A DNA stretch of 64,000 nucleotides from Candidatus Omnitrophota bacterium (GCA_029261065.1 JAJDCB010000024.1:12129-76128), one strand, 5' to 3'; shown: positions 3,407 to 19,971, numbered from the stretch's first letter. The notes: a model not told the origin generated them from the letters alone. Program-made: numbers and translations.

Positions 3407-3820
3407 ATGTATACTTATCAAACAAAAATTAAACTTCATCAAACAGATGCTGCAGGTTTATTGTTCTTTGCTCATCAATTTGAAATTATACATGATGCGT
3501 ATGAATCTTTGTTAGAAGGGATTGGTTTTGGGTTTGCAGAATTGATAAGAAACAAAGATTTTTTTCTTCCTATTGTTCATGCAGAGGCTGATTATAAATT
3601 ACCTTTGTTTGTGGGTGATGTTATAGAGGTTCAAGTGCGCGTTGGCAACATTGGTAAAACGTCTTTTAGTTTTGAATATCAATTGTTAAATACACAACAA
3701 CAAATTGTTGGAACAGCAAAAACAATTCATGTCACAATTGATAATAAAGAACACAAAAAAATTCCTCTCCCCTCTTTAATGCGAGAAAAAATTGAAGAGC
3801 TCTGCAGCGACAAGCAATAA
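3407..3820 (+). CDS. Hotdog-fold acyl-CoA thioesterase (4HBT/YbgC family); candidate 1,4-dihydroxy-2-naphthoyl-CoA thioesterase of the men pathway
   Basis: 137 aa; the N-terminal HQTDAAGLLFFAHQF motif fits 4HBT/YbgC thioesterases. A GAGGAG SD precedes the ATG. It is divergent from the menE-menC-menA-menB block. The DHNA-CoA role is inferred from context only. Confidence 0.6.
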   Translation: MYTYQTKIKLHQTDAAGLLFFAHQFEIIHDAYESLLEGIGFGFAELIRNKDFFLPIVHAEADYKLPLFVGDVIEVQVRVGNIGKTSFSFEYQLLNTQQQIVGTAKTIHVTIDNKEHKKIPLPSLMREKIEELCSDKQ

Positions 3821-3850: not shown

Positions 3851-5305
3851 TTAAGAACCTAATTCAACGGTATAGTTTTTAGCTAACTCTTTTAAAGCCT
3901 CTCGGTCTACTTTTAAGGTTTGATTATTTAGTAGCCCAGGCCAAAGGTAGTATCTATCGGGGAGTTTAAATTTAGGGACTTTTTGCTGCAGTATTTCTTC
4001 GGTTTGTTTTCGACTAAATTCTTGATTATGTGCTTGTTGAATAAAAGCTACTGGTCTAAACCCAAATTCTTCATCTTTGACAGGAACAACAATCGCATTT
4101 TCTACCTCAATACATTGACATAAGTAATGCTCGATCTCCTCGGGTTGAATGTTCTCCCCACCTGATATAAACATGTTATCTTTTCGTCCAACAATTTTGA
4201 TATTATGATTTTTGTCTTCCCGTCCTAAATCTCCCGTATGAAACCACCCTTCTTCATCAAGCGCCTGATCGATACCAGCATATTCTTTAAATAACGTAGG
4301 ACCTTTAACATATATTTCACGATCATCCGCAATTTTTATTTCACGGTGATTAAGTGTTTTTAAGTTTGCATGTAATGAGTCTTGTGTGAGCTTCTCAGAG
4401 GTTGCCACAGAAGATGCCATTTCGGTTAATCCATAAGTTACAAAAACGGAAAGCTTATGATCACATGCTTTTTTTAAAAGACTTTCATTAATGGCTGCCC
4501 CTCCCAACAAAAGGCCTTTTAACGTTTTCATCTTATCAACGGTCACTGTTTCTTTAATCAAACGAAGCAATTGTGTAGGAACTAATGACATATAACTTAT
4601 GTTATGATTTAAGATGGCTTCTGTTAAAGAAGAATTTGAATCAGGAACCACGATTGTGGCCCCAGCTAATAGACATCGAAAGATAATGCTTAATCCACCG
4701 ACGTGATATAACGGCAAAGATAATAGCCAAGTGTCTGTACTTTTAAGATCAAGATGCTCATTGTTTCCTATGGCATTGTAATGATGATTGGCATAAGTGT
4801 GTATGACAGCTTTTGGTTTGGCATTTGATCCAGAGGTGTAAATAATGGTCATTTCTTCTTCAGGGTTAAGACTTGATTTTTTTATTTCGCTATCTTCAAA
4901 AGCAACGGCGTAATGTTGAATCAAAAAGGGAAGATCAATTTTTTCTAACGTTACTGTTTGCGATTGTAAAATGTCTTTTAAAGAACTTACTAGAATTTTA
5001 CATTTTAGTTCTTGAGATTGAGTATTAATTTGCTCATGAGGTGATTTAGGATTTAGCAAACAGCTGACCGCCCCCATGCGCCACAAAGCAAGGAGAATGA
5101 CGATGGTATCAATACTTTTATCGACACAGACGGCAATGCGATCCTTAGGTTTAATCCCTCGTTTTTCTAGTTCAGCTTGAATAGCACATACGGAATTAAT
5201 AAGTAATTTATAGGAAATTGTAAGGTCCGCTCCAATAATGGCTGGGTGTTCAGGAGAGTTTTGGGCGTGTTGATCTAGAGGAAAGATTATTTCAGAGGTT
5301 ATCAT
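3851..5305 (-). CDS. menE: O-succinylbenzoate-CoA ligase (AMP-binding adenylate-forming enzyme)
   Basis: 484 aa; AMP-binding signature YTSGSNAKPKAV. 4-nt overlap (ATGA) with upstream menC. The men context supports MenE over a generic acyl-CoA ligase. Confidence 0.75.
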   Translation of the reverse strand: MITSEIIFPLDQHAQNSPEHPAIIGADLTISYKLLINSVCAIQAELEKRGIKPKDRIAVCVDKSIDTIVILLALWRMGAVSCLLNPKSPHEQINTQSQELKCKILVSSLKDILQSQTVTLEKIDLPFLIQHYAVAFEDSEIKKSSLNPEEEMTIIYTSGSNAKPKAVIHTYANHHYNAIGNNEHLDLKSTDTWLLSLPLYHVGGLSIIFRCLLAGATIVVPDSNSSLTEAILNHNISYMSLVPTQLLRLIKETVTVDKMKTLKGLLLGGAAINESLLKKACDHKLSVFVTYGLTEMASSVATSEKLTQDSLHANLKTLNHREIKIADDREIYVKGPTLFKEYAGIDQALDEEGWFHTGDLGREDKNHNIKIVGRKDNMFISGGENIQPEEIEHYLCQCIEVENAIVVPVKDEEFGFRPVAFIQQAHNQEFSRKQTEEILQQKVPKFKLPDRYYLWPGLLNNQTLKVDREALKELAKNYTVELGS

Positions 5306-6387
5306 AGTTCTTTTAATAAATCGAATCGAATATTGTCTTTGCGTAACAACTTACTACTAATATCTAATTTCCCGTTATGAAAGTCAAGGCTTTCCTTTAA
5401 TAATTGTTCTTTAAACCATTTTAGGGTATCGATACCAACGTTATTGTCTCTTGTAAAACTTCCTGAAAGATGTGCTAAGTTAAATAGTCCTATGTCTGAT
5501 TCAAAAGAAGAACTGATAACGGTTTTAATGGCTAAACCAACGGCTTGATTGATAATCGAACAGATTTTAGAAAAGCTTCTTTCTAATGTTGGTTTTAAAA
5601 TAAGCACATCAACGCCTACAATAGATCGAATGTCGTCAAAGCCAAACTCTCTTAAAGATTCATCTAAGGCCACAGGAATCATGCTTTCATTAAAGAAATC
5701 AGGAATTTTTTCAATATCTTTGAAAGGTTCTTCAATATAATCAATGGCCGCCAAGCCTACTTTATTGGCAAAATAAGTAGCTTCTTTAAAAGACCACGCT
5801 TGATTAGCATCGACGTGAAGAACCGCCTTACCTTTTAAAATTTCGGTGAGAGCAAGAACTTTTCGAATGTCTTCTTCAACGTTTGATCCCACCTTTAATT
5901 TTAATGCCTTAAAACCTCGATCTAATAAATCTTGTGCTTGAGGAAGGATTTCTGACTCCTTGCCTGTGAGCAAACCATTGATATGAACAATGTCATGCGT
6001 TTTATCAGATAAAAGTTTATTTAAGCAGATCTGTTTTTTGTTAGCTAAAAGGTGATATAGACTTGATTCAATTCCAAAAGAGACAGATTTTAATAATTTA
6101 TCTTCATCAAAATATTTTTCTAATTCTTTTTCTAATGTCTTTAGGGTTTCAGGCAGCTCAAGATTGTTAAAAAAATGTTTTAATTCTTTGAGCTGTTTAA
6201 TACTGTCTTCTAATGTTTCTTGGCTAAAGTTGGGTAAAGGAGCGCATTCGCCAAATCCTTCAAAACCATCGTCACTGGTCAGATGAATAATAACCCCTTC
6301 CCTTTGATCAAAGAGATCGCCTTTAAGCCATAGCGGTTTGACAAATGGAATTTTGTATTGATAGATTTTAAAAGAAGAGATCTTCAT
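5302..6387 (-). CDS. menC: o-Succinylbenzoate synthase (enolase superfamily, MR/MLE)
   Basis: 361 aa; enolase-superfamily motifs (KLKVG, HVDANQAW, IEEP, LD metal ligands). Sits between menA and menE. Confidence 0.75.
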   Translation of the reverse strand: MKISSFKIYQYKIPFVKPLWLKGDLFDQREGVIIHLTSDDGFEGFGECAPLPNFSQETLEDSIKQLKELKHFFNNLELPETLKTLEKELEKYFDEDKLLKSVSFGIESSLYHLLANKKQICLNKLLSDKTHDIVHINGLLTGKESEILPQAQDLLDRGFKALKLKVGSNVEEDIRKVLALTEILKGKAVLHVDANQAWSFKEATYFANKVGLAAIDYIEEPFKDIEKIPDFFNESMIPVALDESLREFGFDDIRSIVGVDVLILKPTLERSFSKICSIINQAVGLAIKTVISSSFESDIGLFNLAHLSGSFTRDNNVGIDTLKWFKEQLLKESLDFHNGKLDISSKLLRKDNIRFDLLKEL

Positions 6388-7264
6388 AGACCCAACCCAC
6401 GGAAAATAGAATGCTGTAGATAATTAATAATTTTCCCGTAAAAGCCAATGTTGCATTTAAGGCAGGGCCATCTTTTTGAGAACTAATTGTAATATAAGCC
6501 GGAATAGCGATAAGACTTATAATCGTTGCATATAAAATTTGTATATGATCTTTAATGAATAAGTAGATCAAGACCGGAATTAAAGAAGCGCAGATAATTG
6601 CAAAAATATATTCGTATTTGGCAAAGTTACGACCAAATCGGACAGCTAATGTCTTTTTGTTTGTTTTTTTATCGTCCTCAACATCTCGAAGATTATTGAC
6701 GGCAAGAATAGCCACAGAAATTAAGCCTGGTGCCAAACCAGCGAGGACAACAGCCATATTGATTTCAAATGATTGCACATAATAAGTTCCTGCCACAGCC
6801 ACTGGTCCAAAGAATATCAAAACAAAAATATCGCCTAATCCCAAATAACCTAAAGGTCTTGGACCGGCGGTGTAAAATAAGCCTGATAAAATCGATAAAA
6901 CACCAATGATGATAATCGGCATTCCTCCTCGTTTGGCTAAAAAAAGACAAATCAGAGCAGATAATGTAAAGGAAATGATTGTTGCCATTTTAACGGCTTC
7001 TGGTTTGATTAAACCGGCTTGTGTCACACGTGTGGGTCCAATTCTTTCTGAGGTATCTGTCCCCTTTTTAAAATCAAAATAATCATTGGCAAGGTTTGTG
7101 CCTATTTGAATCGTAAGCGCTGCGAAAAAACAAAGAATTGCGGTTGTGATATGATACACACCATCGCCCACCGCCATGGCCGTGCCAATAAGAACAGGAC
7201 TAATGGATGCGCTTAAGGTTTTTGGCCGGATGGCCATGATCCAAATTTTTAGTGGGGAGTGCAT
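6368..7264 (-). CDS. menA: 1,4-dihydroxy-2-naphthoate polyprenyltransferase (UbiA family)
   Basis: UbiA-type NDxxDxxxD motif (NLANDYFDFKKGTD) in a polytopic membrane protein. The ORF track extends to 7348, but the Met at 7264 (MHSPLKIW...) lies 4 nt after the menB stop, so 7264 is the likelier start. Confidence 0.8.
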   Translation of the reverse strand: MHSPLKIWIMAIRPKTLSASISPVLIGTAMAVGDGVYHITTAILCFFAALTIQIGTNLANDYFDFKKGTDTSERIGPTRVTQAGLIKPEAVKMATIISFTLSALICLFLAKRGGMPIIIIGVLSILSGLFYTAGPRPLGYLGLGDIFVLIFFGPVAVAGTYYVQSFEINMAVVLAGLAPGLISVAILAVNNLRDVEDDKKTNKKTLAVRFGRNFAKYEYIFAIICASLIPVLIYLFIKDHIQILYATIISLIAIPAYITISSQKDGPALNATLAFTGKLLIIYSILFSVGWVYEDLFF

Positions 7265-7268
7265 GATG

Positions 7269-8102
7269 TTAAGGTCTTCGTGGGAATTTGGAAAAATCTG
7301 GTTTGCGTTTTTCAACAAAAGCATTGCGCCCTTCTTGGCCTTCTTCACTCATGTAATAAAGCATCGTCGCATTACCGGCTAATTCTTGAAGGCCTGCTTG
7401 GCCATCGCAATCGGCATTAAGGGCCGCCTTCAAACATCGAATGGCCATGGGGGAATTGGCTAATATCTCACGGCACCATTGAACGGTTTCCGTTTCGAGA
7501 TCTTTATAAGGAACAACTTTATTAACGAGACCCATATCAAGAGCCTCTTGCGCATTGTATTGTCGACAAAGAAACCAAATTTCGCGTGCCTTTTTCTGAC
7601 CGACAATGCGCGCCATATAACTCGCACCATAACCACCATCAAAAGATCCTACTTTAGGGCCTGTTTGACCAAAAATTGCATTATCAGCGGCAATACTTAT
7701 ATCACAAATCAAGTGAAGAATATGCCCACCTCCTACTGCAAAACCAGCGATCATCGCAATAATGGGTTTAGGACATGTCCGCATCTGGCGCTGAAAATCA
7801 AGGACATTCAAACGATTCGTCCCCTTAGCATCTTTGTAACCCGCATCCCCTCGAATTTTCTGATCACCACCAGAACAAAAAGCCTTCTCACCCGCTCCGG
7901 TTAAGATAATGACGCCAATCGATTCATCCTCACGGGCGTCATTTAAGGCTTGAGACATCTCCATAACAGTCTGCGGACGAAAAGCGTTACGTACTTCAGG
8001 GCGGTTAATCGTGATCTTTGCGATCCCTTCGACTTTATTGTATTTAATATCCGTATATTCGTTGTTCGATTTCCAACTTATTTTTTGCATTTTTGTCGTC
8101 AT
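7269..8102 (-). CDS. menB: 1,4-dihydroxy-2-naphthoyl-CoA synthase (crotonase fold)
   Basis: 277 aa; characteristic MenB N-terminus and crotonase core ([12 protein letters not shown]..., [17 protein letters not shown]). Confidence 0.9.
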
Positions 8103-8195: not shown

Positions 8196-10121
8196 TTAAA
8201 GGTTTTGGATCTTCTTTTTTAATGTGTCGATTTGTTTTTGTTGTTTTTCAATGAGTTCTTTACGTCGTTCGATTTCATCGTTTTGATCCTGAACGACCTT
8301 TGTCAGGAGGGCCGTGATTTCAAGAGGACTTAAGCTTGAGCGATCTTGCGTGGCGATTAAATCAGGGACGTCTTCAGCGATAAATCCGATATTGGGTTGT
8401 TCTGGATTTTGCTTGTATAGAAAGGTAACAGGTTCTAAATTGTCTAAAGCGGCGTGAGCCCTTTTGGAATCAAGCGGGGTGATGTCTCTTTTATATTTTC
8501 GCGAACTAATACTCTGCCAAGTTAAGCCATCACTATAAGCACCATTAGCTGAGCCAACGATAAATAATCTGTCTGGGTCCTCTTCGCGTATGCCAACGTT
8601 ACCATTCGTATCAATCGTTAAATAATCATTACTCATATTTTCAGGGTTAAAACCATGACCTGTTGAAGTGCCATAACTAAAAGAAAAACGGTCATCAGCG
8701 GCCCCGCCGCTCCCGTTACCATAGTGGTTTATAAACCAATGATTATTTTGAGCAGTACCATTTATTGTTGCCGACATCATAATATGTGAGGAATTCCTGT
8801 TGTTATCTCTCACATTAAGTTGTAAGACTCCTACTTCCGCTTCTATGATTATTGATTCTATTCGGTTAGGGAGACGAGTTAGATAATCGACTCCGGTAAG
8901 TTCTTGGGTATCCACATGTAGGACCGCTGTGGTGCCTACGCTTCCAATGCCTAGAGTGTCTTTTTGTAAGTTAAAAACTTCAGTTCCACTTAAAGGATCA
9001 TCATCGTCTGCAAAAATTCTAAAGGCATTGTTGGAAGCGGTAAGGGCAAAGGTTCCACCAGTGGTGTCAATGAGTTCCATAAGGGGATCTGTTCCTTGCA
9101 TATCAATTGTTCCCCATCCTCCAACATGAAGTTCATAATTCGGTTTAACGATGCCTCCAAATCCGAAGAGGGCAAGATTTTGACCTGGTGGATCCCAATA
9201 ATTCATTACCACAGCTGTGTTTTCACTGCCTTCTTTTCCTCCGATTAGGGTAAAAGAATTTTTATCCGAGTTATAATTATCGTGAGCAGAAAGAGTCCAG
9301 TTTGTATGATCAGAACCAACAGAATCATACTCTCTGAGTTTTAAAGAAGTCACGCCGTCATCATTTGCAATATGGAGTTCTGATAGTGGTGGGTTAGGCG
9401 CATCAAATGAACCAAATCCGATTTGGCGTGTGCTTTTTATGGTCATACGATGTTGTTCGGGGCGCCACCACCACTCTGGGTCTGAAAATTTGTCATTATA
9501 TTTTAGAAAAAATGCATCATCGTCTGTCGTTAGACGTCCAAAGAGCCACATATTTGTGAATTGGCCGCTACCATCGACTTCTGTAAAATGAAATTGTGAC
9601 TCAGCCGCACTATGTCTTGGGGCAATTAAATTTAAGAGATTATCACTGTGTGACATCAATAGTTGACCATCAAAGGCTGTATCTCCATAGAGAGCACCAC
9701 TCGGCCAATCAACCGTGAAATTATCATCATGAATATGAAGAATAGCCTTGGGAGCAGATGTGCCTATTCCAAGTTTCATTGGTGTTGAAGAGGATGTTTT
9801 AGTAGGAAAAAGAATATTTCCATTTTGTGTCCATGTGCCTGGAATAGGTCCCCAAATGCCGACATTGGCACCATTATTACCACAGAAACGCAATAGCCCT
9901 GTCACACTATCGACAAAGAGCTCTCCGATCTGACAGTTTGCTGATTGCGTCCGTGGAATCAAGCGGAGTTGATCAAATTGTGCGCTTGGCGTTGAATGAA
10001 AAGAGCTGAGGTTTAAGGTATGTTTGGTCTCTGTATTGGTTAACGCGCTATTAGCATCAACTAAGAATACACCTTGCGTAGAAATCAGGATGATAAGCAT
10101 GATCATGACATTTCTTATCAT
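8196..10121 (-). CDS. Secreted tail-fibre-domain protein paralog 1: signal peptide, GxGT..P...LH(V/I) beta-helix-type repeats, C-terminal peptidase S74-like intramolecular chaperone domain and coiled-coil tail
   Basis: 641 aa. N-terminal hydrophobic signal. Repeats such as KLGIGTSAPKAILHIHD, NYELHVGG and TAVLHVDT. C-terminus SSRKYKRDITPL...NIGFIAEDVPDLIA...ITALLTKVVQ matches the phage endosialidase/tail-fibre chaperone domain, including a Ser-x4-Lys dyad. Confidence 0.75.
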   Translation of the reverse strand: MIRNVMIMLIILISTQGVFLVDANSALTNTETKHTLNLSSFHSTPSAQFDQLRLIPRTQSANCQIGELFVDSVTGLLRFCGNNGANVGIWGPIPGTWTQNGNILFPTKTSSSTPMKLGIGTSAPKAILHIHDDNFTVDWPSGALYGDTAFDGQLLMSHSDNLLNLIAPRHSAAESQFHFTEVDGSGQFTNMWLFGRLTTDDDAFFLKYNDKFSDPEWWWRPEQHRMTIKSTRQIGFGSFDAPNPPLSELHIANDDGVTSLKLREYDSVGSDHTNWTLSAHDNYNSDKNSFTLIGGKEGSENTAVVMNYWDPPGQNLALFGFGGIVKPNYELHVGGWGTIDMQGTDPLMELIDTTGGTFALTASNNAFRIFADDDDPLSGTEVFNLQKDTLGIGSVGTTAVLHVDTQELTGVDYLTRLPNRIESIIIEAEVGVLQLNVRDNNRNSSHIMMSATINGTAQNNHWFINHYGNGSGGAADDRFSFSYGTSTGHGFNPENMSNDYLTIDTNGNVGIREEDPDRLFIVGSANGAYSDGLTWQSISSRKYKRDITPLDSKRAHAALDNLEPVTFLYKQNPEQPNIGFIAEDVPDLIATQDRSSLSPLEITALLTKVVQDQNDEIERRKELIEKQQKQIDTLKKKIQNL

Positions 10122-12058
10122 AGAGCACCTCGATTCTCAATGGTATTGAGCATCTTCTGGATGTCATGCAATTTTTGTTGTTGTCCTTGCATAAATTCTT
10201 GCTGTTTGTCTAACTCGTGTTTTTGATGTTGCATGACCTTTGTTAACAGAGCAACAATATCCATGGCACTTAAACCTTTATGATCTTTTTGAGAGAGTAA
10301 GTCGGGTACATCTTCAGCAATAAACCCTGCCCTCTTGTTGTTATCCTTTGTTTTATAATTAAAGGTGACAGGGGCAAGGTGTTTAAAGGCGGTTAGGGCC
10401 TCTGTCAGATCAAGGTCCTCAATATTTGTCTTAGATTCGCGGCTAGAAACGTCTTTCCACTCTCCTGCACTTGTGACATGTGCGCCGCCAGCAAATGAGA
10501 GCGGGTGGTTATTAGGTCTTTGTCCAATAGCAACGGATTCAAAAGTTAGAGTTGGGTCAAAGCTTATTATGGTATTAGTCATATCATCTGGATTTAACTC
10601 ATTACCAGGATCTAGATTTTTATATGCTATAGAGAACAAATTATTTTGGTACGGCGGCGTGAAGGATAAAGTGGTATCATACCAATAATTCATACTCCAG
10701 TGTTGACTCCAGTCGTTTACATCTTTTCCGGAGGAAAGGAAGATATGGTTTGTCCAGGACGTAGAGCGGTGACTGATCATGTGTAAAGCTACGTTGTCAT
10801 TGTTTTCAATTAATATGCCATCGTGGATTGTTAAGTCACTTCTTCGGGGACTCCTGCCTACATCCAATTTTTTCCTTGGAAGGTTATGGTTCCGATTATT
10901 CGTTAATCCATCTGCGGTCAAACGCATCAAAATATTAGAGGGTGAATGGTCCTTAAGACGAAATGTCAGGTCATCCTCATTTGCCCCAGTAATTAAAAAA
11001 GCGTCATCGCCACTACTTCCAAATAGGTTTATTGTAAAACTTCTATCTATTAATTTCAATGAAGCTAATCCCCCAACGCTGAGTTGAGATCTAAAGATTC
11101 CGTTTCCTAATAGCGTCTGGCCATTTTCATTTATTGTGAGGCGTTCAGCCAGTGGTCCACCGGCATCTCCCCCATAAATAGAAAATCCATGCGGGATTGG
11201 ACTTGAATCTCCATAAGCCCGAAGTTCCCAGTGCGCGAAATTGCTGTCTGACAATTCCATGAGAGTCACAGCTGTTGTTTCATCGTTTCCACTAACCGTT
11301 AATTCGTCTGTAAGAGACCCCAAATAAGGCCCAAATCCAGCCTCACCATTAGGTTGTATCTTAAAACGGATATTACTATCATCATAAGCTGGGACAGCTG
11401 GATTTGAAAGAGCGCTGTAACCAATATAAAAATCTCCTCCACTCGCGGTGGGTAAGCGACCTGTTTCCCATCTGTTAGTATAATCACCTGTTATGGGTGC
11501 TACTTCGGAAAATTTTATGGCTGAGTGTGTTCCGCTTGAACTAGACATGATATTAAAACCGACGTCTTCATTAATAACTGTTGCTTCTCCGGTAAGAAAA
11601 TCAAATCCTCCAATGAGGCCGCTTGTCCAATCGACATTAACGTTTCCATGAATTTGAAGTTTTGTGTTTGGTGTTATTGTTCCTATGCCAATATTAAGGT
11701 TGGGTACTGGGTTTGAAAGAAAATCTGAAGGAAACACAATAGGGTCTCCTGCGCCGTCATCCGTTTGCGTCCACACCCCGGGAATTAGAGACCACGTTCC
11801 AGCAATACAATATTGGATCAGATCTGAATCATCGACAGAAAAATCTCCTGTAGCGCAGGATGGCGGGCTTCCTCCCCAGTAATTTGGGTTGAGTTTTAGT
11901 TGGTCATAGGCGCCAATAGGAGCAGGTAGATATGTTGTGAGAGTCACGGTCTCAGCCCACAGCTGTCCTCCACCCATTCCAAAAATAATTAAGATGGGCA
12001 AAAATAGATGTTTTATTCGCTTTAAGTTATCGCCAAAGGCGATTTTTTTGTTGTACAT
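10118..12058 (-). CDS. Secreted tail-fibre-domain protein paralog 2 (same architecture as paralog 1)
   Basis: 646 aa. Signal peptide. Conserved N-domain (YLPAPIGAYDQLKLNP ... C.TG ... YC ... W..IPGVWTQ). Repeat LNIGIGTITPNTKLQIHG. C-terminus SSRESKTNIEDL...RAGFIAEDVPDLL...IVALLTKVMQ plus coiled coil. ATGA overlap with paralog 1. Confidence 0.75.
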   Translation of the reverse strand: MYNKKIAFGDNLKRIKHLFLPILIIFGMGGGQLWAETVTLTTYLPAPIGAYDQLKLNPNYWGGSPPSCATGDFSVDDSDLIQYCIAGTWSLIPGVWTQTDDGAGDPIVFPSDFLSNPVPNLNIGIGTITPNTKLQIHGNVNVDWTSGLIGGFDFLTGEATVINEDVGFNIMSSSSGTHSAIKFSEVAPITGDYTNRWETGRLPTASGGDFYIGYSALSNPAVPAYDDSNIRFKIQPNGEAGFGPYLGSLTDELTVSGNDETTAVTLMELSDSNFAHWELRAYGDSSPIPHGFSIYGGDAGGPLAERLTINENGQTLLGNGIFRSQLSVGGLASLKLIDRSFTINLFGSSGDDAFLITGANEDDLTFRLKDHSPSNILMRLTADGLTNNRNHNLPRKKLDVGRSPRRSDLTIHDGILIENNDNVALHMISHRSTSWTNHIFLSSGKDVNDWSQHWSMNYWYDTTLSFTPPYQNNLFSIAYKNLDPGNELNPDDMTNTIISFDPTLTFESVAIGQRPNNHPLSFAGGAHVTSAGEWKDVSSRESKTNIEDLDLTEALTAFKHLAPVTFNYKTKDNNKRAGFIAEDVPDLLSQKDHKGLSAMDIVALLTKVMQHQKHELDKQQEFMQGQQQKLHDIQKMLNTIENRGAL

Positions 12059-12061
12059 GGG

Positions 12062-14017
12062 CTATAACCCTTCATTCCATTTTTTTAGATCATTTAAGAG
12101 TCTATCGATATCTTCTGCTTGTTTTTCAAGCGCATTATTTTGTTGTCCTATTGTATGTTCGTGTTGCTGCATGACCTTGGTTAAGACGGCTGTGATGTCC
12201 ATCGGCGTTAATGTTTTTCGGTCTTCGGAGGCTACCAATTCAGGGACATCTTCAGCAATAAAACCAATTCGAGGATCATCGGGATCCACCTTGTAATAAA
12301 ATTGGACTGGTTCAATGTCTTTAATAACCGCGAACGCTTCTTGTTCTGATAAAGGATAAATATTATTTTTGGATTCACGAGAAGAGACATTTACAAATGT
12401 TGTTCCGGTACAATGGGCTCCTGGCAAAGCTGGATTGCTTGGATTTTTTAACTCTAGAAGGTGTGCTGGGTTTCTCCTACCAATACCGACATTACCGTTT
12501 GCTTGGAGGACTAGATATTCGGGATCTGCTGTCGTAACATCAAAAGCGCCATTTGCTCTTTTATAGTGAATAGCAAAATCATGATTTCGGTCTGGACCAA
12601 AATGACTGATAATCCAATGTTTACTGTCCTGAGCGGGTGAATTAGGGGTTGAGGAAAGGACGATATGAGACATTGTCGTATCGGCATTCTCTCCAATAAT
12701 TTGTAACATCGAATCATGCGATTGAAAAATAAAGCCGTCAGCATTAGAATAATTGACATCTGTATGCAGGCCAAACTCTGTCTGGATGTGAAGATATGTT
12801 TCTGGGACTTGCAATCCCATACCAATATTCCCATCATCTCTTAAAATAAATGCCGGGGGCCAGGAAAAACTGAAATGACTAATTGGGGCTTCTTCGATCG
12901 CTAATAAACCATCTAGTTTACGGATGTTATAATCTTTGAATCCAGGGTCTTGATCGATAAAAGCAATGCCGACATCACCAAAAACTTCATTTTGGAGTAA
13001 TATGGACCCGTCTCCTCCTAATTCGAGTTGGCTTGAAGGGTTTTCCGTATTCAATCCAATTTTTCCATCAGGGAGAATAGTCATGCGCGTTTTACACGTC
13101 GCACCTGCATCCAAACATGTTCCATCAGGTGACTCTCCACCGTAAATATGAAACTTATTATCATCTTGAGACTGGAATTCAAAAACCGTTTTTCCATCGG
13201 CTGTTGTTTCTTCTTCTAGCCTTATGGCGACTGATGTGTCATCACTTTGAATATGGAGTTCAGAAAGGGGTCTACTAGGATCTCCGGCATTTTGGTCAAA
13301 TGCGCCTAGGGCCGTTTTGCCATCAGGTTCTATCATAAGAATGCGATTCTTGATTTCCCAAAATTCAGAATTAACAGTATCTGAGTAAGCAATCGAAAAT
13401 GTTCCAAAATCACTGGTGGTTCCATTGCGATTGATTGACCAAGTATTTTGATATAGCCCAGAAATATCAGTAGTTTCTGTCAGAAGAATAGATGACGCTA
13501 GTCCGGGAGCATCTTCAGCCACCATAACAAGAGAGGCATTGGGTGCGGCAAGGACAAGTTGACCCCCAAAAGAATAGTTGACATTAGCTGTGGTGTCAAA
13601 GTTTAAGCCATCTACAAGGTGTAAAGAAACGGAATCATCCAGATCAGGCACGTTTTCGATATTGATGCCAACGTGGACGTCTGGAAAAAGAGCGGTATCT
13701 GAAAGAAAAATATCATCTCCATTTTGCGACCATACACTTGGAAAGTTACTCCACGTTTGTGAGAGGTCACAATATTGGGGAACGTTTAAGGCATTGACAT
13801 ACACTGTTCCTGTTTGACAAGGTACAGCCAAATCATTTTGAGGTAACAAATTGAACGTGTTGAAGGTGCCGTAAGGGGTGGGAAAATAGGAATTAAGTTT
13901 AAATTCCTCAGCAAAGGCCAAATGGGATAGATTACAAACAATGAGCAGCAGGCTCAAGCAGATAGGAGAACGCTTAAGTATCTTACCTAATAGCTTTGGT
14001 TTCATGGCTTTATGCAC
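12062..14017 (-). CDS. Secreted tail-fibre-domain protein paralog 3 (same architecture)
   Basis: 651 aa. Signal peptide. N-domain (YFPTPYGTFNTFNLLP ... PCQTG ... YC ... W..FPSVWSQ). Repeats GKIGLNTENPSSQLELGG, GNIGMGLQVPETYLHIQT and GNVGIGRRNPAHLLEL. C-terminus SSRESKNNIYPL...RIGFIAEDVPELVA...ITAVLTKVMQ plus coiled coil. Confidence 0.75.
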   Translation of the reverse strand: MHKAMKPKLLGKILKRSPICLSLLLIVCNLSHLAFAEEFKLNSYFPTPYGTFNTFNLLPQNDLAVPCQTGTVYVNALNVPQYCDLSQTWSNFPSVWSQNGDDIFLSDTALFPDVHVGINIENVPDLDDSVSLHLVDGLNFDTTANVNYSFGGQLVLAAPNASLVMVAEDAPGLASSILLTETTDISGLYQNTWSINRNGTTSDFGTFSIAYSDTVNSEFWEIKNRILMIEPDGKTALGAFDQNAGDPSRPLSELHIQSDDTSVAIRLEEETTADGKTVFEFQSQDDNKFHIYGGESPDGTCLDAGATCKTRMTILPDGKIGLNTENPSSQLELGGDGSILLQNEVFGDVGIAFIDQDPGFKDYNIRKLDGLLAIEEAPISHFSFSWPPAFILRDDGNIGMGLQVPETYLHIQTEFGLHTDVNYSNADGFIFQSHDSMLQIIGENADTTMSHIVLSSTPNSPAQDSKHWIISHFGPDRNHDFAIHYKRANGAFDVTTADPEYLVLQANGNVGIGRRNPAHLLELKNPSNPALPGAHCTGTTFVNVSSRESKNNIYPLSEQEAFAVIKDIEPVQFYYKVDPDDPRIGFIAEDVPELVASEDRKTLTPMDITAVLTKVMQQHEHTIGQQNNALEKQAEDIDRLLNDLKKWNEGL

Positions 14018-14141
14018 ACACCCTTTTTATGATTTGTGTAATAAATCCTCTTACTTCTCTAAAGTATAACATATTGAACCTGCTTTAACATAGAGAAACA
14101 AGATAAATTAAGTTGTAACAGATTACGGCACAGAGGGTTGA

Positions 14142-15800
14142 TTAGGGGGTTTTTATTTCAAATATCGTAGAGGTCTTTTTTTCAAAAGATTTTGGGTAGT
14201 TTTTAGTCAAGGCCTTAATATCTGTTATCAAAACGTGATCTAAATTAAAGAGATGGGCTGTTGAGTCAAATTGAAGATTATGAGGAGTTATAAAGTATTG
14301 CTCAAAAACGTCTTTATATTCTGATATGGGAAGATTGCGAAAAATGCCGCCGCCATTGTTGTTTACAACAATAATTGTCATCGGGTTTTTTAGGTCTTTA
14401 AGCATGGCTAATGAATTGAGATCATAGAGAAAAGCCAAATCACCAATAAGAAGTGTCACGCGTTTATTTAATCCTTGTGAAAATCCACAGGCACTTGCAA
14501 TCGTGCCATCTATTCCACTTGCCCCACGATTGGAACCGATCATGGTCTCTTCTCCCTTATGGTCTGCAAACATATCCATCTCGCGAATAGGCAAACTGCT
14601 TGAAAGAAAGAGGCCTGTGTCTTTGGGAATCAATTGGGAGATGAGCCTTGGGATTGAAGGTTTAAATGAGATGGATTGTGATAATTTCTGAAGGTTTGAC
14701 AGTAACGTTGGTTTCTTTTTCTTCTTTAATTTGGTACAAATGCTATCACAAAGTTTACCCACAGGCGCTTGAAGTCGCATGGTGACATTATGTAAGGGAT
14801 CATTTCGTAAAGGATGATTGAGGACCATAATGTATTGTTTTGGCGATTTCTGTTCAACAAATTGATACCAGCGTTTAGATGTGATGCGGCCTCCTAAATG
14901 AAGAACACCGTCACAGGTTATTTGTTTTTTGGCAGAAGTCGATAAAAGGATTTGATCAAAATAAGGAATGATGTTTTTATGATCAATACCCACCCTCAAT
15001 CCTGAAGTGATATCTGGAAAAATGGGCCAACCAAGTTTTTCTGATAGTTTAAGAACGCTTAAACGATCTTTTTTTGCAATTTTTCCAACAACGATGATTC
15101 CCCTTTTTATAGCATTAATTTGAGATGTTACATTTAAGAGATCATCATTTGATAGTGTAGGGTTAGCCGTCGTGTAGTGTGTGTAAACTTTTTTTGACTT
15201 TTGCCAAGTTTGTATATGTTTAAGATACCGTGTAAAGTTCTCTTTTGATGGCGACGGTTCTAGCGGTTCACGAAACATACAATTTAAATGCACAGGTCCC
15301 TTCAATTCTCCCATAGAACGATGAATGGCCTGATCAACAGTCGTTAATATAAATTCAGCTGGGATATCTTGCGTGGGTGTTGGCATGTCAAAGCTCCAAC
15401 GCACATAATCACCAAAGATTTTAACTTGATCGATGGTTTGGTTCGCGCCGGTAAATCGTAATTCTGGCGGACGATCAGCTGTCAAAATGATGAGCGGAAT
15501 TTTTTTCTTTGAGGCCTCAATGATGGCTGGAAATAAATTGCCTAAAGCGCTGCCTGAGGTTGTAATAACGATACTTGGTTTCCCAGTTGCTGAGCTATAT
15601 CCAAGAGCATGAAAGCCCTCTCCTCGTTCGTCAAAATGCACAAAGGTTTTCATCTTTGGATTAAGTGCCGCTGCCACCGTTAAAGGCGCGCTGCGGGAAC
15701 CAGGTGAGATACAACAGTAATCTAAGCCATTACGCACAAACTCCTCAATCAAAAGATTCGACCAGAGATAATTAATGTTGGGAGATTTTGATATAGACAT
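14142..15800 (-). CDS. menD: SEPHCHC synthase (2-succinyl-5-enolpyruvyl-6-hydroxy-3-cyclohexene-1-carboxylate synthase), ThDP-dependent
   Basis: 552 aa; N-terminus LWSNLLIEEFVRNGLDYCCISPGSRSAPLT is typical of MenD; ThDP-binding GDLAFLYDLN motif. Confidence 0.9.
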   Translation of the reverse strand: MSISKSPNINYLWSNLLIEEFVRNGLDYCCISPGSRSAPLTVAAALNPKMKTFVHFDERGEGFHALGYSSATGKPSIVITTSGSALGNLFPAIIEASKKKIPLIILTADRPPELRFTGANQTIDQVKIFGDYVRWSFDMPTPTQDIPAEFILTTVDQAIHRSMGELKGPVHLNCMFREPLEPSPSKENFTRYLKHIQTWQKSKKVYTHYTTANPTLSNDDLLNVTSQINAIKRGIIVVGKIAKKDRLSVLKLSEKLGWPIFPDITSGLRVGIDHKNIIPYFDQILLSTSAKKQITCDGVLHLGGRITSKRWYQFVEQKSPKQYIMVLNHPLRNDPLHNVTMRLQAPVGKLCDSICTKLKKKKKPTLLSNLQKLSQSISFKPSIPRLISQLIPKDTGLFLSSSLPIREMDMFADHKGEETMIGSNRGASGIDGTIASACGFSQGLNKRVTLLIGDLAFLYDLNSLAMLKDLKNPMTIIVVNNNGGGIFRNLPISEYKDVFEQYFITPHNLQFDSTAHLFNLDHVLITDIKALTKNYPKSFEKKTSTIFEIKTP

Positions 15801-15808
15801 AAATAGGA

Positions 15809-17194
15809 TTATTCAAATATTTTCATAAATCGACTAATTTTATTTTCAATTTCTTCCCACTCCTCTTCCAACTTTGATCCTTCCACAATGCCAGCTCCAG
15901 AATAAAGGGAAAGATGATTGTTTTGCACAAGGCCTGAGCGAATGGCTACAGCAAATTCGCTTGTGTTATATCCTACATAGCCCATGGGTGCTGCATACCA
16001 TCCGCGATCAAAGGGTTCTAATTTGTCAATGGTATCAATGGCCTCTTTAAGAGGTGTTCCGGCAACAGCGGGTGTGGGATGTAAATGTTTTAAGATTGCA
16101 TCATCATGTTTGTCAGTTAGGAGTTTTGCTTCAAAGCGTGTGATAAGATGTTGAGTGCCTTTAAGGGTTAGAACCTGACAGTCTGGATTGTCATTTAAAA
16201 TCTCAGCCAGTTTAGCAAGAGAATCTTTGATTGAGGAAACAACATACTGGTGTTCTAACATATTTTTGGATGATGTTAAAAGCTCTTGAGCAAAACGTGA
16301 ATCTTCTTCTTCATTGGCTCCCCTTCTAATCGTTCCTGCAATAGCCTCCGTCCACAGATGATTGTCATGACGTTTAAATAAGCGTTCGGGACTAGCACCA
16401 ATAAAAGCTAGATGTTCTTCTAATTGGAAACAAAAATGAAAACAGTTGGGGGTTTTTTCTTTGAGATGTTTTATCAGAGCGCTTGGACGGATATTGACAT
16501 CAAATTCGAAATTGCTTTCGCGGGCTAAAACAATTTTTTCGATATTTGAAGGTTTGTCCATAAAAGTATTAAAGATTTGGCTCCACTGCTCTTTATTCGG
16601 TTTATCTTCTCGGCTTACGATTGTCGGTGTTTTTCGAAAAGTCGTTTGATTAGAAAAGTCAATCGCATCACATTTTTTTAGCAATGAGGCTATGTTCTCA
16701 TCCGTAATATCTTTGAGGGCAATATTAAAGGCAAAAACAGTTTCCTTTTCATTTTTATAGTGACACACCTCAAATTGTGGAATGATAAAATGATACTTGC
16801 CAAACTTATACCATTGATCAGACTTTGCATCAGGATTAAAACGAAATCCTCCAAAGTATTTTACATGAGGATTATTCACAGACAGTTGATTGTTCATGTC
16901 TTTTAGAATGTCTTCTAATGACTTATTTTGATCATCGGTAATCTCATCAGCAATATGAATACCTGCGGTTTCAAAATCTCCACGACGATCAGACCAATAA
17001 ATTTTATTCGGGATATGTTGATTGTGCAGCCAGGTTAAACAGTTAATATCTTGGCATACAAATTCATAACGTAGAATTTCTTGAGGTGTTCCTATAAAAC
17101 TGACGGCTTGAGGTAAATTTTTTATGTGAGCGTAAAGTTTTTGTTGGAGTTCTGAAAGGGACAGTAAGGTGTTTGAGCGGAAAAGAGTAATCAT
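15809..17194 (-). CDS. menF: Isochorismate synthase (chorismate-binding enzyme)
   Basis: 461 aa; C-terminal chorismate-binding core (AGTIRRG..., PTPAVAGTP, FDRGWYAAPMGY, SGAGIVEGS). Immediately upstream of menD. Confidence 0.85.
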   Translation of the reverse strand: MITLFRSNTLLSLSELQQKLYAHIKNLPQAVSFIGTPQEILRYEFVCQDINCLTWLHNQHIPNKIYWSDRRGDFETAGIHIADEITDDQNKSLEDILKDMNNQLSVNNPHVKYFGGFRFNPDAKSDQWYKFGKYHFIIPQFEVCHYKNEKETVFAFNIALKDITDENIASLLKKCDAIDFSNQTTFRKTPTIVSREDKPNKEQWSQIFNTFMDKPSNIEKIVLARESNFEFDVNIRPSALIKHLKEKTPNCFHFCFQLEEHLAFIGASPERLFKRHDNHLWTEAIAGTIRRGANEEEDSRFAQELLTSSKNMLEHQYVVSSIKDSLAKLAEILNDNPDCQVLTLKGTQHLITRFEAKLLTDKHDDAILKHLHPTPAVAGTPLKEAIDTIDKLEPFDRGWYAAPMGYVGYNTSEFAVAIRSGLVQNNHLSLYSGAGIVEGSKLEEEWEEIENKISRFMKIFE

Positions 17195-17206
17195 AACAGA
17201 GAGCCG

Positions 17207-17932
17207 TTATTTATCCCCTTGATAAATCGTTGCCACACCAAAGAGCAGTTCATTGGCTTTGACATTTTTAAAGCCTTTATCTCTCATGAGCTGACAAAAT
17301 TGATCACCAAAAGGAAAAGATTCAATGGTTTGATTCAGGTATTTGTAGGCCTTGTAATGCCGGGAGATGATCCACCCAACAATTGGAACAATCGTGCGTA
17401 GGTAAAAGATGTGAAGAATGCGCATAATGATATTTTTAGGTAATGAAAATTCTAAGATGAGCGCTCGGCCCCCTTTATTGAGTACCCGATACATCTCTGC
17501 CATCACCTGAGTTGGGTCCTCAACATTGCGGATACCGAAAGAAATCGTCACGTTATGAAAGGTATTTTCATCAAAAGGAATGTTGTTGGCATCACCGTGT
17601 TGAAGGGTGATTTTGTTATCCAGATTTTTGGTCTTGATTTTTTCTCGACCAATTTCCAGCATTTTCTCAGCCATATCAATACCAATAGCTGATTCGATAT
17701 AAGGATGTTGCTCAAATAAACTTAATAAAACATCTCCCGTACCTGTCGCCAAATCAAGTAATTTTGGATTCTCGCCTAAAACCAAAAAACGACCTAATTT
17801 TTTGCGCCACACAATGTCCAATCCAAAGGACAATAAATGGTTTAAAAGGTCGTATTTCGGCGAGATGGCATTAAACATCTGCCAAGATTCAGATTTTTCC
17901 AGCGCTAATTTTTGATTTGGAGATTTTGTCAT
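17207..17932 (-). CDS. ubiE: Demethylmenaquinone/ubiquinone C-methyltransferase
   Basis: 241 aa; class I SAM-MTase motif LDLATGTGD with the UbiE/MenG-type N- and C-terminal regions. Confidence 0.85.
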   Translation of the reverse strand: MTKSPNQKLALEKSESWQMFNAISPKYDLLNHLLSFGLDIVWRKKLGRFLVLGENPKLLDLATGTGDVLLSLFEQHPYIESAIGIDMAEKMLEIGREKIKTKNLDNKITLQHGDANNIPFDENTFHNVTISFGIRNVEDPTQVMAEMYRVLNKGGRALILEFSLPKNIIMRILHIFYLRTIVPIVGWIISRHYKAYKYLNQTIESFPFGDQFCQLMRDKGFKNVKANELLFGVATIYQGDK

Positions 17933-18059
17933 AATTTGATGAGTTGTATTTTAAGAAATTAAGAGTCATCGTAACATAATTATTTCACAAATTCAAACGA
18001 TACTCGTCTGTTTCTAAACAGCAGAATTTAGGGGAGTTATGGCGTATTGGGTGGGAGAA

Positions 18060-18989
18060 TTAAGATAAAAACTGTTCGGCTTCAAGGGCGGCCATGCAGC
18101 CTGTTCCAGCGGCTGTAATTGCCTGGCGATAAACTTTATCTTGAACATCACCACAAGCAAAAACACCTGGGATATTTGTTTTTGTTGTTCCATTTTGAGT
18201 GATGACGTAACCGGTATCATCGCATTCAATTTGATTCTCTAGAAAAGAGGTATTGGGGATGTGACCAATGGCATAAAACAAGCCATTAGCATCAACGATG
18301 GATTCTTCTTGCGTTTTATTATTGATGAGGCGCACCTGCGCTAAAGCCTTGTCTCCAATAGCCTCAAGTATTTCTGTATTCCATTTGACTTCTATTTTTT
18401 CATTAGAAAGCAATCGATCTTGCATGACCTTTGATGCGCGTAGAGCATCGCGTCTAACGCAGACAATAACTTTGGATGCGTATTTCGTTAAATAGCCCCC
18501 CTCTTCAACAGCAGAATCCCCGCCTCCAATAACGACAAGAACTTTATCGCGAAATATCGGTAGCGCCCCATCACAGACGGCACAGGCAGAAATTCCTCTT
18601 TGCCATAACGTATCCTCACCTTTAATGTGAAGACGTTTAGCTGTTGCTCCTGTCGCTAAAATGATAGATTTGGACTCAATTGTTTCTGATCCAACAAAGA
18701 CTTTAAATGGGGATGAGCTTAGATCTACTTTATCGACAGTGGCGGTTTTGATGCGAGATCCACAGTTTAGGGATTGTTGGCGCATGTTATCCATAAGTTC
18801 CGGACCTGAGACACCATTAGGAAATCCTGGATAATTTTCGACTTCAGTCGTCGTCGTTAATTGTCCACCTGCAGCAACCCCTGCGGCCATCATCCCTTCA
18901 TACATCAAAGGTTCTAATTTGGCGCGTGCGGTGTAAATAGCAGCGGTATGAGCAGCTGGACCTGATCCAATAATTATGACGTTTTCCAT
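18060..18989 (-). CDS. trxB: Thioredoxin reductase (NADPH)
   Basis: 309 aa; FAD motif IIGSGPAA, redox-active CAVCDG and an NAD(P) binding motif. Confidence 0.9.
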   Translation of the reverse strand: MENVIIIGSGPAAHTAAIYTARAKLEPLMYEGMMAAGVAAGGQLTTTTEVENYPGFPNGVSGPELMDNMRQQSLNCGSRIKTATVDKVDLSSSPFKVFVGSETIESKSIILATGATAKRLHIKGEDTLWQRGISACAVCDGALPIFRDKVLVVIGGGDSAVEEGGYLTKYASKVIVCVRRDALRASKVMQDRLLSNEKIEVKWNTEILEAIGDKALAQVRLINNKTQEESIVDANGLFYAIGHIPNTSFLENQIECDDTGYVITQNGTTKTNIPGVFACGDVQDKVYRQAITAAGTGCMAALEAEQFLS

Positions 18990-19068
18990 AAGCGAAGATT
19001 ATAGCAGTTAAATTTATAGGGTCAATTTAAAAATGCTACAGACTTTAAGCAGATTTAAGGAAGGATTG

Positions 19069-19971
19069 TTAAATTTTAAAGGTTTTAAACAAATCAGCTA
19101 TAGGTTGACTAGGAGTCTCTTTGGTTTGGTTGATTAAAATCTGATCGTAGCGTGGTTTATTGGGATCTACATAAAATAGGCCGAAATAAGGACGCTCGCT
19201 GCTTGCAAATTTAAAGGCCTCTTCTTTGTTCGTTGGATCATGCTTAACAACTTCCGTTTTGCCAACCAATCTTTTATCAGGAGCAATGCCTTTGTCATCT
19301 TCAAGAAAAGAAAACCAGCTTGATGTTTTATGATCGAAATTGTTTGGATCAAAATGAGGACAGCGCTGTGAGACGTGGACGAAAGAAAATCCTTTATGCG
19401 CGAAGGCTGCTTTTAACGTATTTGTTAAATGATCTGGCATCCAATCCGCTGTACTTGCGACAAAAGATCCGCCAATCCCTAAAACTAAACTAACAGCATG
19501 AATCGGATCTAAATAAGAACCGGCTGGTTGTGTATTTGTTTTGTGACCTTTTCGAGTTGTCGGAGATGTTTGACTTTTGGTTAAGGCATAAAGTTCGTTG
19601 TCATACATAATAAATACACAATTGAAATTTTTGTTAACGCCATGAATAAGATGACATCCCCCAATACTCATCGCATCGCCATCACCGGAGTGAATAAAAA
19701 GATTAAGTTCTGGGCGTGCTAAGGCTAATCCCATAGCAACGGGAATCGCTCGTCCATGAATAGAATGAACCCCGTAAGTATCAATGTAAAAAGAAGCACG
19801 TCCTGAACAACCTATGCCTGAGACATTCACCGTTTCATGCGCTGTTAATTGAGCATCAACCATAAAACGTTTAACAGCCATAATAATACTAAAGTCACCG
19901 CAACCCGCACACCATCTTGGGCTTTCTGTGTTGAGATCTTTTACTGTCAAAGGTTCTGTTTGAGCGGACAT
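19069..19971 (-). CDS. korB: 2-oxoglutarate/2-oxoacid:ferredoxin oxidoreductase beta subunit (ThDP-binding)
   Basis: 300 aa; CxGCGD motif near the N-terminus and GDGD ThDP motif. Start overlaps the korA stop (19971). Confidence 0.8.
   Translation of the reverse strand: MSAQTEPLTVKDLNTESPRWCAGCGDFSIIMAVKRFMVDAQLTAHETVNVSGIGCSGRASFYIDTYGVHSIHGRAIPVAMGLALARPELNLFIHSGDGDAMSIGGCHLIHGVNKNFNCVFIMYDNELYALTKSQTSPTTRKGHKTNTQPAGSYLDPIHAVSLVLGIGGSFVASTADWMPDHLTNTLKAAFAHKGFSFVHVSQRCPHFDPNNFDHKTSSWFSFLEDDKGIAPDKRLVGKTEVVKHDPTNKEEAFKFASSERPYFGLFYVDPNKPRYDQILINQTKETPSQPIADLFKTFKI

Follow-up and report, generated by a model that had tools for sequence, protein, structure and literature searches.

A tandem triplet of probable MAT-type surface-fibre genes inserted between menD and menB in a likely Omnitrophota bacterium

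Introduction

The superfamily of mosaic adhesive trimers (MAT) was defined in Bdellovibrio by Caulton et al. 2024 (PMC10769870). Its members share an architecture in which a signal peptide is followed by an invariable, beta-rich N-domain of ~130 amino acids (aa), which is thought to retain the fibre on the cell, and by a trimeric stalk with capping loops of the form V-G-G/N-pi-x-x-P-x-x-x-L (PMC10769870). The tips are variable, and 13 out of 21 MATs end in an S74 domain with the motif SDxxxK (PMC10769870). The published loop list includes NVGIGATAPTAKLE and AVGIGTTNPSGILH, some MAT genes form tandem pairs (bd0704/0705, bd3266/3267), and Supplementary Table S3 of that study lists MATs beyond Bdellovibrio, among them a 713-aa protein from Omnitrophica, the tip of which is S74-like, and a 654-aa one from Micavibrio (PMC10769870). 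Bacteria of the phylum Omnitrophota are uncultured, mostly ultra-small and suspected to be host-dependent or predatory; the attachment factors discussed for them are only giant open reading frames (ORFs) and Tad pili, and S74 fibres are absent from the main survey of the phylum (PMC10066038). Here we describe three adjacent genes, P1, P2 and P3, that lie between the menaquinone genes menD and menB at positions 8196-14017 of a stretch of 64,000 nucleotides (nt) of DNA (GCA_029261065.1, JAJDCB010000024.1:12129-76128; the window in the following). We consider it likely that P1-P3 are short (~640 aa) members of the MAT-type surface-fibre family, S74 subgroup, probably in an Omnitrophota bacterium, and that they represent a lineage-specific insertion at the menD/menB junction and not a prophage.

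Three tandem paralogs with the anatomy of surface fibres

The ORF list of the window shows three co-oriented genes on the minus strand, with P3-P2-P1 as the order of transcription:

12062..14005, minus strand: P3, candidate MAT-like fibre gene, 647 aa from the ATG at 14005; Pfam S74 match with E 1.4e-7
10118..12058, minus strand: P2, candidate MAT-like fibre gene, 646 aa; Pfam S74 match with E 1.9e-9; AAGGG 9 nt before the ATG
8196..10121, minus strand: P1, candidate MAT-like fibre gene, 641 aa; Pfam S74 match with E 6e-8; the exact protein is P0001

The ORF of P3 reaches back to a GTG at 14017 (12062-14017, 651 aa); the likely true start is the ATG at 14005, as in the database entry P0009 (647 aa). 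The database copy of P2 (P0010) begins 27 codons later and thereby drops the signal peptide, for which reason the longer ORF is preferred here. The start of P1 has a GAGGTG ribosome-binding site and overlaps the P2 stop by 4 nt (ATGA), and only 3 nt separate P3 from P2. Pairwise identities determined by BLASTP amount to 27-29% over ~640 aa (E 1e-44 to 1e-65), so that paralogy of the three proteins is, as judged from these alignments, far beyond chance. A fourth paralog was not found by BLASTP elsewhere in the window. The arrangement thus bears out the original prediction, made from the DNA of the window, of three tightly packed tandem paralogs of 641-651 aa with an ATGA overlap and a 3-nt gap. 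The prediction had also placed menF-menD on one side of the block and menB-menA-menC-menE on the other, and identification of the flanking genes with NCBIfam equivalog models agrees with this:

17207-17932, upstream side: ubiE (NCBIfam equivalog)
15809-17194, upstream side: menF (NCBIfam equivalog)
14142..15800, minus strand: menD, flanks the insertion upstream (TIGR00173, E 3e-130)
7269..8102, minus strand: menB, flanks the insertion downstream (NF005637, E 2.9e-157)
6368-7348, minus strand: menA (NCBIfam equivalog)
5302-6387, downstream side: menC (NCBIfam equivalog)
3851-5305, downstream side: menE (NCBIfam equivalog)

As read from the sequence, the N-terminus of each of the three proteins is basic at first, then hydrophobic, and leads up to a cleavage site of the A-x-A type, as is typical of a Sec signal peptide; the AlphaFold2 models of P1 and P2 have a helix over the hydrophobic part. 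A beta-rich N-domain of ~100-110 aa with two invariant Cys follows directly after the signal peptide, as is evident from the alignments of P1-P3 and from AlphaFold2 models. It obeys the pattern L-x-T-Y-Y-P-x-P-x-G-x-Y-x-x-L-x-L-x-P ... C-x-x-G ... Y-C ... W ... G-x-W-x-Q and terminates in a first G-I-G-T-x-x-P-x-x-x-L-H loop. The proteins diverge in their middle region, which the AlphaFold2 monomer model shows as all-beta (mean predicted local distance difference test score (pLDDT) 64); with a strict pattern, four further capping loops are detected there in P1, three in P3 and a single one in P2. The loops of P1-P3 include KLGIGTSAPKAILH, NIGIGTITPNTKLQ and NVGIGRRNPAHLLE, which agree with the published MAT loops NVGIGATAPTAKLE and AVGIGTTNPSGILH and with the published consensus. 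At the C-terminal end, Peptidase_S74 (PF13884) scores above the Pfam gathering cut-off in all three proteins (32-38 bits vs a cut-off of 22). Residues S539, S540, R541 and K544 (P1 numbering) are invariant and constitute a SSRxxK motif, behind which the AlphaFold2 model shows a helix of ~40 residues. The individual segments are as follows (HMM, hidden Markov model):

13910..14005, minus strand: P3 signal peptide, aa 1-32, ending in ...HLAFA before EE; read from sequence
13601..13909, minus strand: P3 N-terminal domain, ~aa 33-135, ends in the first G-I-x capping loop; N-domain HMM E 1e-41
12065..12385, minus strand: P3 S74 domain and C-terminal helix, aa 541-647; Ser541/Lys546 in SSRESK
11954..12058, minus strand: P2 signal peptide, aa 1-35, ending in ...QLWA before ET; read from sequence; AlphaFold2 helix 11-28
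11639..11953, minus strand: P2 N-terminal domain, ~aa 36-140; HMM E 1.3e-34; small beta-sheet at aa 73-110 in AlphaFold2, pLDDT 75-87
10121..10447, minus strand: P2 S74 domain and C-terminal helix, aa 538-646; SSRESK
10053..10121, minus strand: P1 signal peptide, aa 1-23, ending in ...LVDA before NS; read from sequence; AlphaFold2 helix 3-15
9717..10016, minus strand: P1 N-terminal domain, ~aa 36-135; HMM E 4.1e-41; strands at 68-106 in AlphaFold2, pLDDT 65-83
8199..8507, minus strand: P1 S74 domain and C-terminal helix, aa 539-641; Ser539/Lys544 in SSRKYK; AlphaFold2 helix 599-640

P1-P3 possess all of these predicted parts: a signal peptide, the conserved motif of the N-domain, repeats of the form G-x-G-T..P...L-H and a helix at the C-terminus. 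The proposed S74 or tail-fibre character is confirmed by the Pfam matches and by matches to tail-fibre families of the PHROG collection. Anchoring as a lipoprotein can be dismissed, since the signal peptides do not end in a lipobox followed by Cys; the L-I-V-C of P3 has Val at position -1 and lies inside the hydrophobic core.

Relation to the MAT fibres and to a wider family

A profile built from the three paralogs was compared with all sequences of the PDB and detected the Bdellovibrio fibre Bd2133 (8ond) with E 8e-5, a match that improved to E 1.6e-19 with a family profile of 22 sequences. The same family profile matched 8ojn/8onb/8onc (E 7.5e-10), the chain end of which (...WTVAS) aligns to the Ser of the SSR motif, as well as 8oml (Bd1334), 8ol4/8onf, 8on4 and the L-shaped tail fibre of phage T5; the solved MAT fibres matched are Bd2133, Bd3182-type fibres and Bd1334. 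A Foldseek search with the AlphaFold2 model again returned the Bd2133 fibre (8ond) at the top (E 4e-5, prob 0.93). MyRF was found by both approaches (7dc3, E 3.5e-6 with the 22-sequence profile; ICA domain, prob 0.99 with Foldseek). The ICA domain of MyRF shares the S74-type trimerising and self-cleaving module with its capping loop; MyRF is, however, a eukaryotic membrane-bound transcription factor, and this module is all that it has in common with P1-P3.

The likeness in architecture to the Bdellovibrio MATs of the S74 subgroup, e.g. Bd3182, comprises the signal peptide, the presence of a conserved domain directly behind it, a beta-rich stalk with capping loops and a C-terminal S74 chaperone with a Ser-Lys dyad. 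In both cases several divergent paralogs are present, some of them adjacent, and in length P1-P3 are near Bd2740 (627 aa) and Bd2872 (626 aa), which count as "short" MATs. Unlike the Bdellovibrio proteins, P1-P3 come from another phylum (probably Omnitrophota) and are known from sequence alone. The Omnitrophica MAT of the published list, A0A2H0LB00 (COV76_08125, 713 aa), resembles P1-P3 in candidate phylum, approximate length and S74-type C-terminus, a likeness by description only; it is a single listed protein, whereas P1-P3 form a tandem triplet at a men locus. Given that MAT fibres have already been described, including one Omnitrophica member and tandem pairs (PMC10769870), we do not follow the original prediction in calling the occurrence of such a fibre family unexpected.

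Several points weigh against the reading of P1-P3 as MAT fibres of an Omnitrophota bacterium. The TM-scores to MAT structures are low, as is to be expected when an extended trimer is modelled as a monomer, and the confidence of the AlphaFold2 monomer models is medium to low (mean pLDDT 64 and 60). The N-domain is likened to that of the Bdellovibrio MATs by position and beta-rich character, not by sequence, and the catalytic motif reads SSRxxK here vs the published SDxxxK. Trimerisation, self-cleavage, surface display and any ligand would carry over to P1-P3 by analogy, and the taxon has been assigned from neighbours of MenD and of the N-domain only.

Word-indexed homolog searches gave few relatives of the fibre proteins and an exhaustive search was required. 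This HMMER search over 1.84 billion cluster representatives yielded 18,359 proteins (E <= 1e-3), the majority of them with a match in the S74 domain only. Among the best 149 representatives, at least 49 have the same N-domain at their N-terminus, mostly in proteins of 600-710 aa with a C-terminal S74 domain, which sets the size of the N-domain family at 49 or more cluster representatives at the 50% identity level. A metagenome scan with the three paralogs likewise returned mostly S74-only relatives, and many of the weak "N-domain" matches were merely capping loops. In some family members (P0016-P0021) YadA-like GG-x-N-x-A-S-G repeats replace the stalk, and the family is therefore regarded as a mosaic with constant ends and a swappable middle. 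Metagenome-assembled genomes of Omnitrophota also code for proteins of 100-250 aa that consist of a signal peptide and the complete or partial fibre N-domain only (P0159, P0167, P0171; L084:10001-10654); these may be either fragments of genes or members of the family that lack S74.

A lineage-specific insertion at the menD/menB junction

The best homologs of the MenD protein are 52-60% identical, and every one that carries an organism name (52-56%) belongs to Candidatus Omnitrophota/Omnitrophica, which is why the host is probably a member of this phylum. The organism-named matches of the N-domain profile are likewise all from Omnitrophota/Omnitrophica. The lifestyle of the host cannot be read from the window: the original prediction of a host-associated genome finds no support in a window without signs of reduced metabolism, in which leuC, ilvD, thiC, aroC and acnA are encoded along with a 2-oxoacid:ferredoxin oxidoreductase and a cytochrome c oxidase of the aa3 type.

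Among the MenD homologs on long contigs, the closest one (P0185, 59% identical) is encoded next to menB with a gap of 176 nt and without fibre genes. The gene order of this contig is thiC, a 623-aa hypothetical gene (opposite strand), radical SAM/BATS, korA, korB, trxB, ubiE, menF, menD, menB, menA, menC, menE, 4HBT (opposite strand), MIP, AhpC and SOD, which corresponds to the order of the window from 26915 to 1365 (~25 kb) save for a small ORF of 121 aa that the relative has in addition between trxB and ubiE. The second relative (L165, GCA_964630825.1; MenD 57% identical) has the same order and no trace of fibre genes between menD and menB; its junction is occupied by a 1.3-kb spacer (L165:11741-13061) with an unrelated 107-aa secreted (signal-peptide) ORF at 12450-12773, and a consensus TTGACA-17-TATAAA promoter stands immediately before menB. 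The spacer also has a promoter-like site further upstream, behind which a long stretch is not translated. Fibre or S74 genes are also absent from 80 loci around MenB homologs from a range of bacterial phyla; MenB is highly conserved across many phyla and none of these homologs exceeds 86% identity, which makes the 80 loci distant synteny controls only. Since the closest relatives share ~25 kb of gene order but have no fibre genes at this position, the triplet is, judged by synteny, a lineage-specific insertion, in agreement with the insertion that had been proposed for the men genes. Its two edges are:

14006..14141, minus strand: menD-P3 intergenic region, upstream edge of the insertion; junction also in Logan contig L082
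8103..8195, minus strand: P1-menB intergenic region, downstream edge of the insertion; rich in AT, promoter-like hexamers before menB are weak only

Contig L082, which was reached through MenD, is identical to window positions 12639-20955, and the menD-P3 junction has been assembled independently in it; exact look-ups of P1 and P2 in the same contig index gave no match. In its composition the block is old or native: the G+C content (GC, 0.41-0.42), GC at third codon positions (GC3) and codon usage all lie inside the range spanned by the window's 37 other genes. Recent horizontal transfer, which we considered, finds no support in these three measures. P1-P3 are mutually as distant as they are from their nearest outside relative, P0011 (29-31%). 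A 4.9-kb metagenome contig (L167:1-4879, JGI 3300022697) carries P0011 together with P0036 in a further tandem array, which has at least three paralogs, all fragmented; these are the closest relatives that P1-P3 have outside the window. Tandem arrays are common in this fibre family (further examples are L083 and L142).

Because of the 1.3-kb spacer and the consensus promoter before menB in L165, the menD/menB site is probably a variable junction that marks the boundary between a ubiE-menF-menD and a menB-A-C-E transcription unit. The original prediction had located the fibre genes in the middle of the menaquinone operon; they do lie between menD and menB, but the relative indicates a boundary of two units rather than the interior of one.

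Alternative explanations

If all genes from ubiE to menE, fibre genes included, were co-transcribed in one ubiE-menFD-fibre-menBACE operon, fibre display would track the respiratory state of the cell. The genes are indeed on the same strand with short gaps on either side of the fibre block (124 nt towards menD and 93 nt towards menB); neither gap contains a terminator-like hairpin (folding energies vs shuffled controls give z values of +0.26 and -0.32) or a consensus promoter, the latter in a consensus-only scan of an AT-rich region, which lessens the weight of this negative result. Read-through from menD via the fibre genes into menB is possible. Yet the relatives manage without fibre genes at this site, L165 has a spacer with an unrelated small ORF and its own promoter there, and MAT-like tandem arrays are found in unrelated contexts (L083, L142, L167). 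The fibre genes are not a conserved component of related men clusters, being absent from the two closest relatives and from the 80 MenB loci, and the evidence from relatives argues that any coupling between fibre and men genes would be a by-product of the landing site. The position beside the men genes is most likely incidental, and a single operon that ties fibre expression to quinone synthesis is in our opinion unlikely and the least supported part of the finding.

That the fibre genes are domesticated tail fibres, left behind by a phage that had integrated between menD and menB, is highly improbable. Such an origin would account for the matches of the last 100-270 residues of P1-P3 to PHROG tail-fibre families (PHROG 1980, 6921, 372, 9942 and 18345), which involve the S74 domain and some of the stalk, and for the hits obtained by tblastn against 50,697 phage records. 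The latter are confined to aa 518-641 of P1, so that the similarity to phage records is limited to the last ~120 aa, and the N-domain (represented by the family member P0068) has no match in the same records and, with a weak model of the domain, no significant match among the predicted viral structures of BFVD. Phage fibres and spikes with S74 domains, such as the endosialidase of K1F, the L-shaped tail fibre pb1 of T5 and the long tail fibre of phage S16, share the C-terminal chaperone/protease and the adjacent stalk with P1-P3; unlike these they have neither a signal peptide nor a counterpart of the N-domain and are attached to a virion. No integrase, capsid, tail or lysis gene and no tRNA was found near the fibre block, nor were flanking repeats found around it, and it is surrounded by men, trxB, kor and thiC genes rather than by genes for phage structure, integration or lysis. 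A Sec signal peptide, a cellular N-domain and a native base composition all speak against a prophage. P1-P3 might also be seen not as passive adhesins but as secreted tailspike-like enzymes that depolymerise polysaccharides. It was a tailspike with enzymatic activity, the endosialidase, on which the S74 chaperone was originally described. Published comparisons relate the stalk of Bd3182 to the cleft of the P22 tailspike (PMC10769870); the beta-rich middle of the proteins would suit an enzyme of this kind as well. However, Pfam detects a glycosidase or lyase family in none of P1-P3, the stalk profile best matches non-enzymatic MAT fibres, and an identity of 27-29% among the paralogs does not suggest a conserved active site, which renders an enzymatic function improbable.

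Proposed function of the fibres

For MAT-type fibres at the surface of the producing cell, the following sequence of events can be proposed. The precursors would leave the cytoplasm via the Sec pathway by means of the cleavable signal peptide. The S74 domain and the long helix presumably nucleate trimerisation of the beta-rich stalk, after which the S74 domain would remove itself by a cut at the first Ser of SSRxxK, the Ser of the Ser-Lys dyad, and yield a mature fibre of ~500 aa; both steps are assumed from the behaviour of the family, of which the motif and the domain are observed in P1-P3. By analogy with Bd3182 and Bd2439, the conserved, disulfide-bearing N-domain may retain the fibre on the surface of the producer, and the divergent distal stalk, bounded by V/I-G-I-G-T-x-x-P-x-x-x-L loops, may bind ligands such as surface glycans of other cells. 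Three copies with 27-29% identity could then provide three binding specificities. It is a further and rather doubtful step to see in a fast-diverging fibre triplet the host- or prey-recognition apparatus of an aerobic, menaquinone-using Omnitrophota lineage, which would extend the fibre-repertoire model of Bdellovibrio and would be expressed by read-through from the quinone genes.

Other genes of the window

As listed, menA starts with the GTG at 7348, which makes its ORF share 80 nt with menB; since the match to the family sets in at residue 31, the true start is probably located further downstream. The men cluster is without menH both here and in the relatives, and a convergent gene for a 4HBT-family thioesterase (3407-3820, plus strand), conserved beside menE, probably encodes the 1,4-dihydroxy-2-naphthoyl-CoA (DHNA-CoA) thioesterase. 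A second candidate surface adhesin of 475 aa with an inverse-autotransporter beta-domain (Pfam IAT_beta, E 4e-21) is encoded at 28343-29770 (minus strand). At 23243-25117 (plus strand) lies an ORF of 624 aa that has no match in Pfam or NCBIfam; its counterpart by position and orientation on the P0185 contig, where thiC and the radical-SAM/BATS gene flank it, is the 623-aa gene, which has no Pfam match either. A MORN_2 repeat protein (35624-36769, minus strand; E 8e-43) and a B12-binding radical SAM protein (52110-53627, plus strand), HpnJ-like but below the cut-off (330 vs 578 bits), were also identified. An Rfam scan of the window found nothing.

Significance

The placement of the fibre genes is a clean insertion at a boundary within a biosynthetic cluster and does not by itself imply new biology. 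This kind of fibre is already known. The value of the triplet lies in testable candidates for attachment proteins and not in a new mechanism. MAT fibres are the current best candidates for the recognition of diverse prey by Bdellovibrio, and P1-P3 together with their family of at least 49 cluster representatives constitute concrete, expressible attachment-protein candidates for an uncultured phylum. If the reading as prey- or host-recognition fibres were true, the fibre model of Bdellovibrio would reach a phylum of suspected nanosized predators or symbionts.

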